From positions 4,751,250 through 4,815,249 of the forward strand of contig OZ252114.1 in the NCBI GenBank assembly GCA_965248635.1: a stretch of 64,000 bases of DNA, written 5' to 3'. The stretch comes from Acidobacteriota bacterium (GTDB taxonomy: Bacteria; Acidobacteriota; UBA6911; RPQK01; CBDAPI01). Shown in pieces: positions 6,505 through 28,548 of the stretch (positions within the stretch are counted from its first letter, which is position 1; each line of letters begins with the position of its first letter). The notes below the pieces were generated by a model that made no database searches, was not told the origin of the DNA, and was given only the letters and a program-made list of their open reading frames with translations. The position numbers and the translations under genes are program-made.

Positions 6505-6906
6505 ATGCGCGATCCCGGAGTTGACCTGGAAATCGAGCGAATCGGTCAGATCTACCACGGAGATGTCGTCGTCCATGCCTGCCGCGATCTGGCACTGCTG
6601 GGACGCAAATGCAAGCCTCAGATCCTCTATACCTTCCTGGGATTCGAGCTCAAGATGGGCCGGACTAGGTTGAGCTGTCCCGACATGGGTACTGCGCGCT
6701 ATTTGAGAGTCTTTGCCGAAATCGGAGTGAAACGGGTCAAGCTTCCGTACGATCCCAGCCGCGTTCAGCTCCTGGCCACGGGTCTGGAGCACTCGTTGGA
6801 CCGGATCAAGGAGCACCTGCTGGAACGGGATCTGGATGCGCGCGGTCACGCCGCGGCCCTGCGCCGGGTCTACGCCCGGATCCGAAAGAGGCTGGCTGAC
6901 GCATAG
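6505..6906 (+). CDS. hypothetical protein
   Basis: About 133-aa ORF filling the gap, divergent from the BMC gene; TGnTACCTT extended -10-like motif just upstream. Confidence 0.7.
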   Translation: MRDPGVDLEIERIGQIYHGDVVVHACRDLALLGRKCKPQILYTFLGFELKMGRTRLSCPDMGTARYLRVFAEIGVKRVKLPYDPSRVQLLATGLEHSLDRIKEHLLERDLDARGHAAALRRVYARIRKRLADA

Positions 6907-7041
6907 CTGGTTGGGGTTGGGAAACCCGGATTGCGGTTTTGAGAATGTGGAAAGGCACCTTGGGGCGGCGACCGAGGGGCTTGGACATCAGAAGAAAGTG
7001 GGAGGCCCCCAACCACATTTGACTTCAGGCAGAAACGTCGA

Positions 7042-7114
7042 GAGAGTGGGAGGAGCCCTGGGGCGGCGCGACGTTTAAATTCCCGAGCGCCGCCCCAGGG
7101 CTCCTCCCACTCTC
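7042..7114. repeat. REP/REPIN-like hairpin, copy 2
   Basis: GAGAGTGGGAGGAGCCCTGGGGCGGCGC GACGTTTAAATTCCCGA GCGCCGCCCCAGGGCTCCTCCCACTCTC. Confidence 0.9.
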
Positions 7115-7299
7115 GTAATCCACCACAAACGTCCTAGCCCGGATAATTCACAAATTTTCTACTGCAGCGTGAGAATCTCCCGCCCTGACTGCGTTACGCT
7201 CGGTCGGCCTCCTCGGCGTACTGCACGAGTACGCCTGCGGGGGCCTCGGTCGCAAGCCTTGTCAGAACGGGTCTTCCCCCGCTTCGCTACGAAAATTTA

Positions 7300-9283
7300 G
7301 TAGAGTCGAGATGTGGCGCGGTGGTTTAGGAAGAGCCTATCCGTTGCCGACCCTTTCGTCTGTCGGTGCCTCACTAGCTCGTCCATGCTCCGTTTCCACA
7401 TCCCGCTCGTCGAACCGGACGTGCGGTTTTCCCGCATCCGGCTCTCGGACAAGGTCTTACGCTTTCGCCCACGGAAGGTCGCGAGTCCGCTCGGTCAGTC
7501 GTACCAGCCCCAACCTTTCGTACAGGAACTGGTCCGGGAACTGCCGCGTTCCCTTGCTGCCTTGCTTCTTGTGTTTTCGTCGCAACCACTGACGAAGCCT
7601 CCATCGGGTGTGGGCATCCACCGCCCGATAGGCTTTGCTGACCCCACCCAAGCAGAAGTAATTGGCCCATCCCACCAACATTCGGTTCAGACGGGCCACC
7701 TCTTGCTCGGCTGACCTGAGCCCACTCCAGGGCCGCGTCTCCCTGTGGATTTCGCGACAGATCTTGCCGATCGACTTCTTCGAAGGTCGAGTCCCCATGT
7801 AGGGAACCCCGCTCCTCGCTCGATGACAGATCCCCAGTGTGTAGCCCAGAAAGTCCAAGCTCTCTTCCGGCAGCCGTCTCACACAGGTCTTGGTCTCGTT
7901 CAGTTTCAGGCCCAGACGCCCCAGTATCTCCCGCGTTGCTCGCAGAGCCTTCCCTGCTTCGCCTTGACAGCAGATCACAAAGTCGTCCGCATAGGACACA
8001 ATCCTGCCCTGACACTGCTTCGGTCCCAGTTTCCTCCACCCCATTATGAAGCGACGAAAGTACAGGTTGGCTAAAAGGGGTGAGATCGGAGACCCTTGTG
8101 TGGTTCCCCTTTTCCCTCCTCCTTTCGGTTCGTCCTTGTCCTTCTTGGAGACCTCCACAACCGGGGTATTCAGCCACATCTTGATCAGCTTTAACATCTG
8201 CCGATCGCAGATACGACGCGCCACCGATTGCATCAGCTCCTTCCGCGGGATACTGTCAAAGTAGCCACTCAAATCTGCATCCACCACCTCTCGGTGGCCT
8301 GTGTTGATCAGAGCGTGCACCGCTTGAACCGCATCCTGCGCGCTTCGTCGGGGGCGGTAGCCATGTTGTTCCGGCTGCAGATCTGCCTCGAAGATCGGCT
8401 CGATGACTAGCATCGCCGCCGTTTGCACCACCCGATCCTTGATCGTCGGCACTCCCAGCGGGCGCTTTCCTCCGTTGGTTTTGTCAATCCACACCCGGCG
8501 CACTGCCGCCGGCCGGTAGCTTTTGCTTTTCAGCTCCCTCGCCAGTTCGCCCAGCCACTTCTCTCGTCCGCGCGCCTCAATGTCTTCGAAGCTCTCTCGG
8601 TCCACCCCCGCTGCTCCGCCATTGGCTTTGCATTTCCGGTAAGCGAACTCCAGAAAGTCTTCTCTCCACACCTTGTCGTACAGCTGATGAAAGCGGCGCT
8701 CGGGCTGCTCCTTCGCTTTGGCGTACAACGTCCTTTGCAGCTTCCCAATCTTTTCCGGAGTTTTCAGCCCCATTCGGGTCAATCTCCGCGCTGTCGCTTC
8801 AGCAGACGTCTGCCTCGAACTCAGGCCCCTTCCCTCCAGCGGGGTTAGCCGCTTTCCTCAGTAATACGAGCCTGTCCGCCACCCCTGCCCGCCCGACCTG
8901 TCCCTCGCGGGTTGCCGGTTGAGGACCGTGCGGCCGTCCTCGCCGACAGGGGCTTCCCGTGTTGCTTGCGATTTCCTCTTAAGTGCGTGCCGTCGCCATT
9001 ACCCCGGCGGAACCAACGGGTGCTGTTGCTCGACTTCCCCGCTGACGGCGGCCTTCCCTGTAATTCAGCCAGGTCGGCTTCCGCATTGCCCTTTTCGAGG
9101 CCTGCTTAGCGTTCACTACTCGTTACGGCCTGCACCTTCGCCAAGTCGCCTAACGCGACCCTCTGCACCGAAGGCTTCAGCAGATTCGTTACCTCCTCTA
9201 CTGCTCCGATTGCTACCGGCTGGAGCGACAGTTGCCGGGTGGGTTTTGCACCCACTGAAAATCGCCGCCTTTTCACGGCGCAC
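7300..9283 (-). mobile_element. group II intron (ribozyme plus intron-encoded RT/maturase)
   Basis: 5' end GTGCG at 9283; domain V GAGCCGGATGCGGGAAAACCGCACGTCCGGTTC (7444-7412) with AGC triad; long domain VI ending CTCGACTCTAC at 7300. Confidence 0.93.
7457..8782 (-). CDS. ltrA: group II intron reverse transcriptase/maturase, no endonuclease domain
   Basis: AAGVD, RPLGVPTIKDRVVQ, QGSPISPLLANLY, YADD, FLGY, domain X GWANYF. Confidence 0.95.
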   Translation of the reverse strand: MTRMGLKTPEKIGKLQRTLYAKAKEQPERRFHQLYDKVWREDFLEFAYRKCKANGGAAGVDRESFEDIEARGREKWLGELARELKSKSYRPAAVRRVWIDKTNGGKRPLGVPTIKDRVVQTAAMLVIEPIFEADLQPEQHGYRPRRSAQDAVQAVHALINTGHREVVDADLSGYFDSIPRKELMQSVARRICDRQMLKLIKMWLNTPVVEVSKKDKDEPKGGGKRGTTQGSPISPLLANLYFRRFIMGWRKLGPKQCQGRIVSYADDFVICCQGEAGKALRATREILGRLGLKLNETKTCVRRLPEESLDFLGYTLGICHRARSGVPYMGTRPSKKSIGKICREIHRETRPWSGLRSAEQEVARLNRMLVGWANYFCLGGVSKAYRAVDAHTRWRLRQWLRRKHKKQGSKGTRQFPDQFLYERLGLVRLTERTRDLPWAKA

Positions 9284-9296
9284 TGAATAATCCGGG

Positions 9297-9707
9297 CTAG
9301 GACCTCACGCGCACCGGTTTTGAAGGCGGCTTTTTCACCAGTCCCTCCATCCGGCCTTCCAACCCATCGGCGCCCAGCTGGCTGCGCAGGAATCCGATCA
9401 ATTCCTCAACCTCTTTTTGCATTGTTTCCATCTTGTTCCGCATGTTGAGGATGACTTCAACTCCGGCCAGATTGACACCCAGTTCCCGGGTGAGATTCAG
9501 GATGACGGCCAGGATTTCGAGATCCTGGTCGGTGTAGAAGCGGGTGTTCCCTGCGCTCCGCGAGGGACTGAGGAGACCCTGCCGCTCCCACGCCCGCAAG
9601 GTTTGAGGATGGAGCTCGTGCATTCTGGCTACCGCTCCGATCGTGTACCCGACTCCTTTTCCAGCCATCTCTCCATCCAATCGCTTCGAGCCGCTGTCCC
9701 CGCTCAT
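9297..9707 (-). CDS. hspR: MerR-family heat-shock repressor HspR
   Basis: YTIGAVARMHELHPQTLRAWERQGLLSPSRSAGNTRFY...LGVNLAGVEVIL; directly follows dnaJ. Confidence 0.85.
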   Translation of the reverse strand: MSGDSGSKRLDGEMAGKGVGYTIGAVARMHELHPQTLRAWERQGLLSPSRSAGNTRFYTDQDLEILAVILNLTRELGVNLAGVEVILNMRNKMETMQKEVEELIGFLRSQLGADGLEGRMEGLVKKPPSKPVRVRS

Positions 9708-10813
9708 CTCAAACCAAGCTGCTCGCGGGGATTCTCGGGATGAAGCTTCGCCAGCTCTTCCAGAAGCTCTTTCGAGCGCCCGCTCGCGGATGCCGGTAGG
9801 ACAATTTTGACACGGACGATCTGATCGCCCCGGGCCCCGCCCTTTGGTCCGGATGCTCCCTTTTTCTTAAGACGGAATTTCTGGCCCCCTTGCGTGCCCC
9901 CAGGAATGTGAAGCCGCGCCTTTCCACTCACCGTCGGCACTTCAATATCGGCGCCCAGGACAGCTTCCGTAACCGTCACCGGGATCTCGCAGTAGATCTG
10001 GTTGCCTTGACGCCAGAATAGGTCGTGAGACTCCACCTCCACGACCAGGTAGAGATCGCCTGCGGAGCCACCCTGCACGCCACTGTTACCCTTTCCTGGA
10101 ATGCGGACGCGGGAGCCGGTATTGACTCCAGCGGGGATCCTCACGGTAAGCGCCTCCGAGACAGCCCGGAAACCGGATCCCTTACAGGCAGAGCAATCTC
10201 CAGCCTGGATCTGACCGGAACCCCCACAACTTCCACAGGTCGTGCCAAAGGTCATGGTCCCATGCCGCTGCTGCGTCTGGCCCGAGCCCCGACACTCGGA
10301 GCAGGATTTCGCGTGTGAACCCGATCGAGATCCCGATCCGTGGCACTTGTCACAGGCCACCTGGCGGTGAAAGTTGAGGCGCTTTTCCACGCCGTTCACC
10401 GCCTCCAGGAAGGGGATCTTGATCTGGTATTCGAGGTCCGGGCCTCTCTTCGGACCGCTGCCCGACTGGCGGGGCCGGCGGCCGAAAAGATCCGAGAATA
10501 TCTCGCCGAAGCTGCTGAAAGGGGATGAGGCCGGCTGGCCGCTTTCGAAGCCCTGAAAGTCAAAACCCCGGGCGCCACCTCCCGGAAACCAGCCGCTGGC
10601 ATCCGCCTGCCCGTAGCGATCGTACGCTTTTCGCTTTTCCGAGTCCCCCAATACTGAATAGGCCTCCTGAATGTCCTTGAAGCGATCTTCGGCGCCCTTG
10701 TCACCCGGGTTGATGTCCGGATGATACTTGCGGGCCAATCGCCGGTAGGCTTTCTTGACCTCTTTGTCGGAAATCCCTTTCTCGAGGCCCAGGGTCTTGT
10801 AGTAGTCGCTCAC
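9704..10813 (-). CDS. dnaJ: chaperone DnaJ
   Basis: J-domain HPD, G/F-rich region, four CxxCxGxG repeats. Confidence 0.96.
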
Positions 10814-19554: not shown

Positions 19555-21205
19555 CCCGGATTATGCAAGAACCGTAATCGGGTATTGAAAAAGACTTGAG
19601 AAGTGGCCCAAATCGGAAGCGGGCACGTGTGACCGGTGGATTTGCGAAGAATATCGGTTGGCGAGGGGGTTGAAATGCTTGGGGGAGTGAATTTCAGACA
19701 GATCTGGGCCTCGATGTGTGTAGGAAGCGGTTTTTTGGGGAGCTGGGAGAGGCTAGCTGGAGTTGAGGCGACTCAAGACGAGGTGGAAGAGGGGTTGTTC
19801 GGGAAAGGCTGAGGAAAGATGGACCCAGATGCGTCGAGTGGTTTGTCGGATCCGGGCCCCAATCTTGAGGACCCGACGACGTAAGGTTTCGATTTCGAGC
19901 TTGTGCCAGGGGGTTCCGTGCAGATAGTCGCGCAGGCGCACGAACATCTGGTAAGCCAGTGCATGCAGGAGGAGTCGAAACTGGTTGGCCAGAAATCGAT
20001 GACAGCTGAGTCGGTCCATGCTCAGATGATTCTTAAAGGCCTTGATGAAGTTCTCGGTCTGCCCTCGGTTTGTGTAGTGGTCATAAAGTGATTGGGAGCA
20101 GAGATCGTCCCGGTTGGTGACTACAAAGCGACGGTTGATCCCACGCTGATCGACCTCCACTTTGACAATGACGCGACGGGATCGATCCCAGCTGTGGGCT
20201 CGATAAAGAAACTCGTCAAACTGACGCTGTTTTTCCTCCAGCTCAACGAACCTCAGCCGAGTCGAATCCAGCAGCGGCTCGACCACTCGCTGCAGGCGAG
20301 GGTTTCGACTTAACCCAATGACATATTGGAGTTTATTCTCTTCACCTTCACAGAACTCGTAGAGCCGAGGCGTGGCAAAGCCGCTGTCGGCCCGAATCTC
20401 AATCTCGACATCCGTCCCCACTCCTTGTCGGATGGCCTCCACGACGCGCTTCAAAACGGGCACGATGTGAGAGGCAGCCCCCTTGTTGCCAGGTCTCAAC
20501 ATGGCACACACCAGGTCTCCCGTGGCGGCATCGAAGATCAGCAAAGGATGCAGAATGTGGTTTCGGTAATACCCGTGGTAGAAGGAGAACTCCTGTTGGC
20601 CGTGAGTGTGGTCATCGGTACTGTCCAGATCCAGGATGATCTTGCTGGGGCGTCTCTTCTTCAGGGAGCGCACATAACGGCCTAGCAGCCACCGGCTCAG
20701 ACGCATCAGATCCTTCTTGGTGACGGAGTTCTCCAAACGGGAGAAAGTCGGCTGGGTGGCCAAGTCGGGATCGCTCTCGGGCAACTGATCACAGACTGTC
20801 TTGAGCATCGGATCCGAGCGCAGCGTATCGGCGTCGTTACAGTCTTCGTAGCCGGCCACGATCTGCAAGACTCGTTGTCGGATCAACTTCAACAGGTCAT
20901 GACGAATGTAGCGTTGGTCTCGACTTTCCGAAATACAGGAACTGAAGCCCTCGCACAATCGATGTTGACGATCCAGCGATCCAAACAACAACCATCCTGC
21001 GTCGGAAGTGAGGCTCCCCCCATCAAAACGAGCCGTGATGTTTCTGTGGCTATGAAATGGCAGGGTATTCTGGCAGACTGTTTTTGACATTGCCGTAGCT
21101 CCTGTTTAGGGTCTTTGTTTCTCTAAACCCTTTTATATCAGAGAGCTACGGCCTTTTTTCTGGGCCCAAATCTCACTTGAATTTAGATCTCCTGCATAAT
21201 CCGGG
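19555..21205 (-). mobile_element. IS1380-family insertion sequence (1651 bp)
   Basis: Terminal IR CCCGGATTATGCA(A/G)GA; CTAG direct repeats at 19551-19554 and 21206-21209. Confidence 0.95.
19753..21090 (-). CDS. IS1380-family DDE transposase
   Basis: FDGGSLTSDAG, LDLDSTDD..HG.QE, RADSGF, YTNRGQTENFIK. Confidence 0.95.
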   Translation of the reverse strand: MSKTVCQNTLPFHSHRNITARFDGGSLTSDAGWLLFGSLDRQHRLCEGFSSCISESRDQRYIRHDLLKLIRQRVLQIVAGYEDCNDADTLRSDPMLKTVCDQLPESDPDLATQPTFSRLENSVTKKDLMRLSRWLLGRYVRSLKKRRPSKIILDLDSTDDHTHGQQEFSFYHGYYRNHILHPLLIFDAATGDLVCAMLRPGNKGAASHIVPVLKRVVEAIRQGVGTDVEIEIRADSGFATPRLYEFCEGEENKLQYVIGLSRNPRLQRVVEPLLDSTRLRFVELEEKQRQFDEFLYRAHSWDRSRRVIVKVEVDQRGINRRFVVTNRDDLCSQSLYDHYTNRGQTENFIKAFKNHLSMDRLSCHRFLANQFRLLLHALAYQMFVRLRDYLHGTPWHKLEIETLRRRVLKIGARIRQTTRRIWVHLSSAFPEQPLFHLVLSRLNSS

Positions 21206-28137: not shown

Positions 28138-28515
28138 TCAGTGACTTCGCTTCAACTGTTCGATGAGCTGAATAAGGGCTTCCAGCATGCCTGCAAGTAC
28201 GAAGATCGAGAGCCCGACGATTCCCCCCAGGAGGCTCAAAAAAGAAAAATGGATCATAGCAAACAAAGTGCCCAAAATCAATAACAGCCGGAGCAGGTAT
28301 TTGAGCATTGCCTGCTTGCGTCCCGCGGGGGTCGGAGTCCCCAGCATGGTATCAATTCCAGCCACCATCCAGCGGTGATTGAGCAGGGCCAGCAACCCTC
28401 CGATCAGGATCGAGAGGGCAGTGCCCGGGCCCTGGTAGAAAAACCCGATCAGCACCAGAACAATGAGAATCCATACTGTGTTGGCTTGCACTCGTTTCAG
28501 GCCCGGATCATTCAT
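28138..28515 (-). CDS. atpI: ATP synthase protein I
   Basis: Four-TM protein upstream of atpB. Confidence 0.75.
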   Translation of the reverse strand: MNDPGLKRVQANTVWILIVLVLIGFFYQGPGTALSILIGGLLALLNHRWMVAGIDTMLGTPTPAGRKQAMLKYLLRLLLILGTLFAMIHFSFLSLLGGIVGLSIFVLAGMLEALIQLIEQLKRSH

Positions 28516-28548
28516 GAGTCTTCGAAAACCATTTATGAATGATCCGGA

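Follow-up and report, generated by a model that had tools for sequence, protein, structure and literature searches.

The review of Zimmerly & Semper (2015) lists three target specificities for group II introns: homing sites, terminators and attC sites (PMC4424553). The habit closest to the one described here is that of RmInt2, a class D intron of Sinorhizobium meliloti GR4, all copies of which lie within the inverted repeats of the insertion sequence (IS) ISRm17, with both ends of that element serving as targets (Martinez-Rodriguez et al. 2014, PMC4615759; Toro et al. 2018, PMC5894124). RmInt2 retrohomes in experiments, with a lagging-strand bias, and CTAGTTC was selected at positions -16 to -10 of its target (PMC4615759). 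Here, we analyse a group II intron in a 64,000-nucleotide stretch of DNA (the window) from an Acidobacteriota bacterium (assembly GCA_965248635.1, contig OZ252114.1, positions 4,751,250 to 4,815,249). The intron lies inside a terminal inverted repeat (TIR) of a 175-bp non-autonomous element, a miniature inverted-repeat transposable element (MITE) of the IS1380 type.

RmInt2 and the present intron both encode a reverse transcriptase (RT)/maturase without an endonuclease, have their copies in transposon TIRs, possess two sites on opposite strands of the host element and pair with their target through exon-binding sites 1 and 2 (EBS1 and EBS2). Moreover, CTAG stands upstream at a similar distance, at -16 to -13 for RmInt2 (by experimental selection) and at -17 to -14 here. 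The hosts differ: RmInt2 occupies an autonomous IS, whereas this intron occupies the MITE, elements made of inverted repeats only and solo remnants. Mobility is an experimental result for RmInt2 and a prediction from sequence for this intron, which is not class D by its C-terminal motif. Unlike RmInt2 as described, it has relatives with the same habit in metagenome-assembled genomes (MAGs) labelled as several phyla.

Other known systems have part of this habit. RmInt1 in ISRm2011-2 and E.c.I4 in IS3-family transposase genes likewise use multi-copy transposons as harmless, self-renewing and saturable homing sites, although their described targets are a transposase gene or IS body and not a non-coding terminal repeat (PMC1802570; PMC3522654). 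Class C (IIC) introns, found after terminator hairpins or attC sites, are also endonuclease-less and also use a generic element feature as target. That target is a stem-loop, whereas the present intron reads sequence by EBS1 and probably EBS2 (PMC4424553). IStrons join a self-splicing intron (group I) to a DNA transposon as well, and their two parts move as one (PMC4227781); for the present intron, which belongs to group II, the evidence speaks against joint movement. In a limited literature search, neither a MITE nor an IS1380 end turned up as the site of a group II intron. Endonuclease-less homing into transposon terminal repeats is known already; what is new is the MITE host, a recognition that probably spans the junction of target-site duplication and repeat, and natural retargeting by one base.

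The intron and its host element

The locus is very probably the outcome of retrohoming by an endonuclease-less mobile group II intron into the TIR of an IS1380-type MITE (Table 1). The intron RNA starts with GUGCG and ends with CUAC, which fits the GUGYG/AY boundary rule. Two Rfam families match on the minus strand: RF02003 (D1-D4-4) at 9118-9257, with 106.3 bits against a gathering score of 49, and RF00029 (D5/D6) at 7300-7446, with 45 bits against 40. The open reading frame (ORF) of the RT/maturase lies in domain IV. Its protein matches RVT_1 (112 bits) and GIIM (57.7 bits) in Pfam, and scores 335 bits against the NCBIfam model of group II RT/maturases, TIGR04416 (cut-off 300). These two domains are its only Pfam matches, so that the DNA-endonuclease (D/En, HNH) domain is absent, and the ORF stops 31 residues past GIIM. 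The class D C-terminal motif LX3AX3PXLF[V/A]HW, as given in PMC4615759, does not occur in the protein, whose C-terminus is ...QFPDQFLYERLGLVRLTERTRDLPWAKA; this places the RT in a different lineage from RmInt1 and RmInt2. By its sequence, then, 7300-9283 is a complete intron of mobile type with an endonuclease-less RT/maturase, and its near-identical copies at eight or more loci are an indirect sign of mobility.

Joining 7138-7299 to 9284-9296 restores a 175-bp element with 22-nt TIRs (two mismatches). An earlier description made from the DNA letters alone (the sequence-only reading) had already given this excision product with its CTAG flanks, and both its coordinates and its description were correct. 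The intron divides the right TIR between positions 13 and 14, leaving 13 nt on one side and 9 nt on the other. The element holds no ORF of at least 60 amino acids. Of its outer 13 nt (CCCGGATTATTCA), 12 agree with the ends (CCCGGATTATGCA) of the IS1380 copy at 19555-21205, which bears out the earlier claim that the intron follows directly on the part matching IS1380 ends and that its target is a non-coding transposon end. Beyond position 13 the repeats of IS and MITE diverge, and the inner 9 nt of the MITE repeat are not common to the IS. When the 13-nt end pattern was searched with at most one mismatch, the window gave six matches (0.23 expected), a number that none of 100 shuffles reached. 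The outer bases, together with a 4-bp CTAG duplication like that of the IS, mark the element by sequence as a real IS1380-type MITE, as had been proposed.

Table 1. Positions of the intron, its host and related elements in the window (1-based).
Feature	Position	Strand	Basis or remark
Left target-site duplication, CTAG	7134..7137		Sequence; same 4-bp duplication at 35/51 full-length IS1380 copies
MITE, positions 1-162	7138..7299	+	Intact left 22-nt TIR at 7138-7159; inner 9 nt of right TIR (7291-7299) are the start of the intron's 3' exon
Group II intron, full length, 1984 nt	7300..9283	-	Rfam domains, BLAST, end sequences
Domain V	7412..7445	-	Rfam alignment
Intron-encoded RT/maturase ORF, 441 aa, YADD, no D/En	7457..8782	-	Profile matches, motif reading
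EBS1 loop UGAAU(U), intron nt 216-221	9063..9068	-	Covariation in alignment A1
Proposed EBS2 GGGC, intron nt 193-196	9088..9091	-	Covariation in alignment A1, weaker
Outer 13 nt of right TIR, end of 5' exon	9284..9296	-	Intron-binding site (IBS) 1 at 9284-9288; IBS2 at 9294-9297, extending into the duplication
Right target-site duplication, CTAG	9297..9300		Bases 9297-9299 double as TAG stop of the MerR-family ORF 9297-9707(-)
IS1380-family element, 1651 bp	19555..21205	-	Transposase 19753-21090(-); candidate trans-acting partner of the MITE
47-bp element of two MITE-type repeats only	28502..28548		Pattern matches; both ends unoccupied

Relatives show what the element looks like without the intron. 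Of 61 genomes in the same order, 43 contain a match to the 162-nt part of the MITE, with 80-87% identity across the order. This sample takes in the window's own genome and one unpublished genome (G012), which is included in the order-wide tallies of MITE, intron and IS1380 transposase; no other claim depends on it. All 11 MITE loci fetched from other genomes have both repeats, lack the intron and read straight through the junction, which confirms the exact boundaries of intron and MITE. Identical 4-bp flanks bound seven of them (CTAG five times, TTAA and CTAA once each), and the flanks are unequal at the remaining four. The intron-free copies that had been predicted are thus present in relatives. 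The window's own genome has none: all five full-length MITE copies there carry the intron. The orthologous site itself is empty, with flanks that abut and neither MITE nor intron, in 7/7 genomes of the same genus that have the locus; one of eight relatives gave no match.

Within the genus, uninterrupted 22-nt MITE ends number 165 in G002, 16 in G003, 11 in G004, three in G001, two in G007 and five in G000, with none in three further genomes; the reversed-pattern control gave no match. G002 has many repeat pairs with a spacing of 54 nt, which implies elements of 76 bp. The two-repeat element at 28502-28548 of the window offers an apparently good intron site on the plus strand, which is unoccupied, and another such mini-element (C1:5357020-5357048) adjoins intron copy c7.

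Copies of the intron and how they spread

The genome of the window is a single contig of 5.43 Mb, which was searched for copies of the intron, the MITE and the IS. With the intron as query, BLAST gave 13 matches. The copies comprise six of full length, one without its first 53 nt, one that is split and two 5' fragments of about 80 nt; there are also two weak partial matches (399-504 at 74.5% identity and 1848-1897 at 80%). Flanks outside the repeat are unrelated, and the copies are therefore separate loci. At each of the nine intact 5' junctions the exon reads CC(C/T)GG-NNN-AT(T/G)CA, a 13-nt IS1380-like end, directly before the intron's GUGCG. YTAR precedes this end in eight cases and CCAG in the ninth, and TAARTTT follows directly on 7/7 intact 3' ends. 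With a 4-bp duplication plus a 13-nt repeat end as the 5' exon in all nine, the target differs from the stem-loop of class C introns. The sequence-only reading had anticipated such a repeated junction at different loci. It had also named two findings that would speak against it, namely unrelated exons beside the other copies and the lack of any intron-free element, and neither was found.

The copies use both ends of the MITE. The right repeat holds c2 (the copy in the window), c3, c6 and c8, and the left repeat holds c4 and c5; c1 lies in a solo 22-nt repeat with no MITE body, adjoining an aminoacyl-tRNA-synthetase-like gene. The six full-length copies vary at only 3 of 1986 alignment columns. 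Among c2-c6, pairwise differences amount to 6/19,843 positions (0.03%) in the introns and 17/1,074 (1.6%) in the host MITE bodies, a divergence about 50-fold lower in the introns. These counts are mutually non-independent, so that a P value computed from them overstates the contrast. The repeat halves beside the intron vary as well, with T, C, G or A at -6 and A or G at +4. Near-identical introns in older, variable MITEs, with both ends in use, argue for recent and independent retrohoming into MITEs that were already dispersed, rather than for copying of a composite.

Such a composite had been suggested in the sequence-only reading, as a 2.16-kb unit of MITE and intron moved by an IS1380 transposase. 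As an account of how the copies spread, it has some appeal: the composite retains its two outer 13-nt ends and the 4-bp duplication, every full-length MITE in this genome carries the intron, and IS1380 is abundant, nearly identical among its copies and probably active. We nevertheless consider it improbable and do not retain it. No two composites have a MITE haplotype in common, as the bases at -6 and +4 illustrate, and introns and hosts have diverged very unequally (0.03% against 1.6%). Furthermore, the intron sits twice in the left and four times in the right repeat, it also sits in the solo remnant c1, and its presence breaks the 22-nt repeat into 13 and 9 nt.

Spread as DNA, by homologous recombination or gene conversion between MITEs, seems very unlikely. 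The MITE copies would supply about 160 bp of homology and the introns are nearly identical, yet in every copy the homology on the 5' side is just 13 nt. Exchange of this kind also sits badly with the inverse orientation of the intron relative to the MITE body (left versus right repeat), with the copy in a solo 22-nt repeat that has no MITE body, and with the covariation of EBS and IBS across lineages (below), which shows RNA-guided site choice.

Least credible of all is that the 175-bp element is a host palindromic repeat merely resembling IS1380 ends: it does fold as a single long imperfect hairpin (z = -4.7), keeps its sequence across an order and gave no parent IS with the same 22-nt repeat when one was sought, but it lies at different loci with IS-like 4-bp YTAR duplications, is missing from the orthologous site in 7/7 relatives, varies from 0 to about 80 copies among sister genomes, agrees with the IS end at 12 of 13 outer bases and is linked to it by an intermediate end in G002 (see below). 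The MITE body matches no Rfam family, the sole match being CRISPR-DR8 at E = 0.89.

Retrohoming into MITE ends would thus account for the distribution of copies, and it can be set beside the ends left empty. Each MITE would offer two inverted target sites, and the MITE-type ends that are suitably oriented and have T at +1 would all have been filled in this genome, in recent independent events. Among the unoccupied ends, those at 696915, 4758387 and 5152020 have C, not T, at +1, that at 4779797 has a mismatch in the proposed IBS2, and that at 5357048 has a different IBS1. Three others look good (2490769, 3725284 and 4779751). The sister genome G002 presents the reverse picture, with its many empty ends and one intron 5' end (3/3 candidates scored) belonging to a copy interrupted near nt 1608.

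Copy c8 is split at nt 1606-1610 (1-1610 and 1606-1898) by about 34 kb, its parts lying at C1:5115499-5117109 and 5151471-5151763. The insert has TTGGT on both sides, ends that resemble imperfect inverted repeats (TGATCAACGAC... and ...GTCGTTGAACAA) and IstB-like ATPase matches inside, and may be a large transposon or Mu-like element.

Target recognition by base pairing

Pairing between intron and exon was scored in an alignment (A1) of 58 non-redundant intron homologues, each with 17 nt of 5' exon; it began with 60 sequences, from which L043 (mislocated start) and L079 (large insertion) were removed. EBS1 and exon positions -6 to -1, that is, repeat positions 8-13, are paired in 89.6% of cells. 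In each of the six pairs both partners vary, in 24-26 sequences, and combinations of IBS1 and EBS1 include ATTCA/UGAAU, ATGCA/UGUAU, TCTCA/UGAGA, GCTTGCG/CGUAAGC and CCCTTT/AAAGGG. Taken jointly, EBS1 and EBS2 are paired in 76.0% of cells. Shuffling gives 50.1%, with none of 500 shuffles reaching the observed value, and sliding the partner by 1-3 columns gives 30-52%; the comparison with slid partners is biased in favour of the structure, since it was proposed from the same sequences on which it was scored. For EBS2, the two central pairs hold in 44/58 and 45/57 sequences.

From this covariation, the intron reads the transposon end itself through EBS1, and probably also the junction of duplication and repeat through EBS2. 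At the window locus, EBS1 UGAAU would pair with repeat positions 9-13 (ATTCA) and EBS2 GGGC probably with the last CTAG base plus repeat positions 1-3 (GCCC). Reverse splicing would therefore always take place between repeat positions 13 and 14. A homing site that spans the duplication and the transposon end would, moreover, arise only when a transposon inserts.

In G000, G002 and G023 the EBS1 loop is UGAAU and the exons end in ATTCA. In the sister genomes G001 and G004 the intron is 97% identical, and its EBS1 loop reads UGUAU. It has six 5' junctions there: three come after the IS-type end CCCGGAT(T/C)ATGCA, two after ...ATTTA, and the last is at an ectopic site that ends in ATGCA. Every one of these copies is truncated, and none has an IS body behind it in the loci considered. 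A single EBS1 base thus separates intron variants matched to IS-type ends from those matched to MITE-type ends.

The autonomous IS1380 element

Elements of the IS1380 family generally have ends that begin with CC and make duplications of 4-5 bp. The transposase of the copy in the window scores 378 bits against NF033539 (cut-off 180) and 482.7 bits against PF13701. In the genome there are 51 full-length copies, 45 with identical 4-bp flanks, of which 35 are CTAG. Their ends read CCCGGATTATGCA and then diverge from one another and from the MITE. As the copies are abundant and nearly identical, the IS is probably active. It presumably spread the MITE, which its transposase could have mobilised in trans; any effect of the intron on the mobility of the MITE is likewise conjectural.

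The sequence-only reading had sketched a three-tier system of IS, MITE and intron. The three tiers do exist, but the intron is confined to the MITE tier: none of the 113 IS-type ends (58 + 55, with ATGCA) in this genome is occupied. The IS probably owes this immunity to G at -3 and A or G at +1.

Recent horizontal spread of the IS is suggested by transposases 97% identical to that of the window in G022 (family f14) and G041 (family f3), genomes from other families within the order. The IS1380-like genes of G002 bear other ends, save for one degenerate IS1380 copy, whose end CCCGGATTATGCA+TAAAGTTTG (ATGCA and then TAAAGTTTG) falls between the IS and MITE types. As possible autonomous parents of the MITE, four pairs of widely spaced repeats in G002 and G003 were considered and rejected. 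All four (L169-L172) are MITEs hit by nested insertions of IS256 type (Transposase_mut), IS21 type (rve and Mu-transpos_C_2) or IS3 type (HTH_Tnp_1 and rve).

Observations that weigh against retrohoming into an IS1380-type MITE

Several observations count against this account, or against parts of it. An autonomous IS1380 element with the full 22-nt repeat of the MITE was not found. MITE and IS1380 transposase are loosely associated: across the 61 genomes they occur together in 25, the MITE alone in 18, the transposase alone in six and neither in 12. Hence 18 of the 43 MITE-bearing genomes lack an IS1380 transposase by this query, many of them being fragmented assemblies. Gene conversion among intron copies could also keep the introns alike.

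Pairing of EBS2 with exon positions -14 to -11 (the last duplication base and CCC) reaches only 59.9% at fixed register, which we attribute to a linker that differs by one base in some lineages. A tentative EBS3 (A1 column 210) is A in the G000 lineage, which has T at +1, and G elsewhere; it is pairable in 27/34 cases and Watson-Crick in 19/34, too weak to claim.

RNA data were consulted as Logan contigs of three metatranscriptome runs (X1-X3) and one run of unknown kind (X14), over window positions 6800-9800. The spliced joint of 7299 and 9284 was not seen in these contigs, which in the RNA runs leave the unique flanks of the locus uncovered. Since the contigs cover parts of the intron and MITE and, in the RNA runs, not the unique flanks, they come from other copies or from relatives. 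In one X14 contig 17 other letters separate 7183 from 9284, a structure that we read as a shorter intron-free variant of the MITE elsewhere.

Finally, the orientation of sites relative to replication gives no clear signal. Occupied sites are lagging:leading 6:4 and unoccupied good sites 0:3, a difference that is not significant and depends on an uncertain origin (dnaA lies at 0.56 Mb and the skew minimum at 5.2 Mb). By analogy with RmInt1 and RmInt2, the intron would reverse splice into DNA at the replication fork and use the nascent strand as primer.

What the system may offer

The locus presents parasitism in layers, from autonomous IS to MITE to intron, with recognition rules that are legible from covariation. 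RmInt2 in ISRm17 is the single characterised example, to which this case adds non-autonomous hosts, a different intron lineage and many MAGs. Natural retargeting pairs are at hand in EBS1 (UGAAU vs UGUAU) and tentatively in EBS3 (A vs G). Sister genomes supply a before/after pair for site saturation: about 165 empty sites and a dead intron in one, a live intron and essentially no suitable site empty in the other. If insertion between repeat positions 13 and 14 disables the end, introns could limit the spread of MITE and IS; if the end stays functional, MITEs could ferry introns between sites.

Distribution of the habit beyond this genome

In the same order, 16 loci outside G000 have a 5' junction. 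Ten of them lie 12-13 nt inside a CC-starting end after TA(A/G), and six lie elsewhere. A wider scan based on the RT, with one genome per species, gave 80 loci at 54-98% protein identity, in MAGs labelled Acidobacteriota, Terriglobia, Thermoanaerobaculia, Planctomycetota, Thermoleophilia, Spirochaetota, Proteobacteria and others. For 72 of the 80, at least 18 nt of 5' exon were available, representing 53 distinct exons. YTAR stands 12-13 nt upstream in 21 of these 53, against roughly 5% expected (a rough estimate), and 14 of the 21 start with CC.

Twenty-six loci have an NTAR-type exon and both junctions. In seven (L015, L020, L042, L046, L050, L059 and L083) a partner repeat with at most one mismatch follows 117-227 nt downstream, which puts these introns in MITEs. 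At L057 and L063, the intron is closely followed by the start of an IS1380-family transposase gene (44% and 38% identity), so that it lies in the left end of an autonomous element. In a descriptive RT tree (FastTree, 55 RTs, midpoint root), CC-type targets are scattered over most subclades, with nine changes, and account for six of the seven rows in the subclade of the window's intron.

These data raise the prospect of an endonuclease-less intron clade, present in MAGs of several phyla, that is specialised on the termini of YTAR-duplicating transposons, chiefly IS1380-family elements and MITEs. In such a clade, EBS2 would read the duplication-repeat junction and EBS1 positions 8-13, and single EBS1 substitutions would switch the type of end. 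We regard this generalisation as evenly balanced between true and false. Were it true, transposon ends would join gene homing sites, terminators and attC sites as a fourth general class of target for bacterial group II introns, and the introns would be a natural brake on such ends.

A related intron lineage in Acidobacteriota MAGs (L067, L072-L076) lies 12 nt inside (Y)TAG+CACAAGCTTGCG, with a 7-bp EBS1 match. No partner repeat for these ends was found within 700 nt; the sequence may be the end of another family of YTAR-duplicating transposons. In a Planctomycetaceae MAG (L104), one copy has a 3' exon that opens with GTGCGCCGTG, with which a second copy starts; this head-to-tail tandem resembles the double insertion reported for RmInt2. 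In that MAG a related intron is also present in over 20 copies, within the recurring context ...ACCYGACCCCTTT|TTCGGATAGGCTCT....

Genomic context

The MITE immediately follows two minus-strand genes, a dnaJ gene (ORF 9704-10813) and one of the MerR family (ORF 9297-9707). The intron is co-oriented with these two genes, so that read-through transcription from the upstream dnaJ-merR operon could supply intron RNA. Just left of the MITE, at 7040-7125, is a near-perfect palindrome with arms of about 25 bp (gggaggagccctggggcggcgc...gcgccgccccagggctcctccc), and similar sequence occurs at the orthologous place in L035 and L038. This palindrome may be a terminator, or a repeat like the repetitive extragenic palindromic (REP) elements, of the dnaK-dnaJ-merR operon region.

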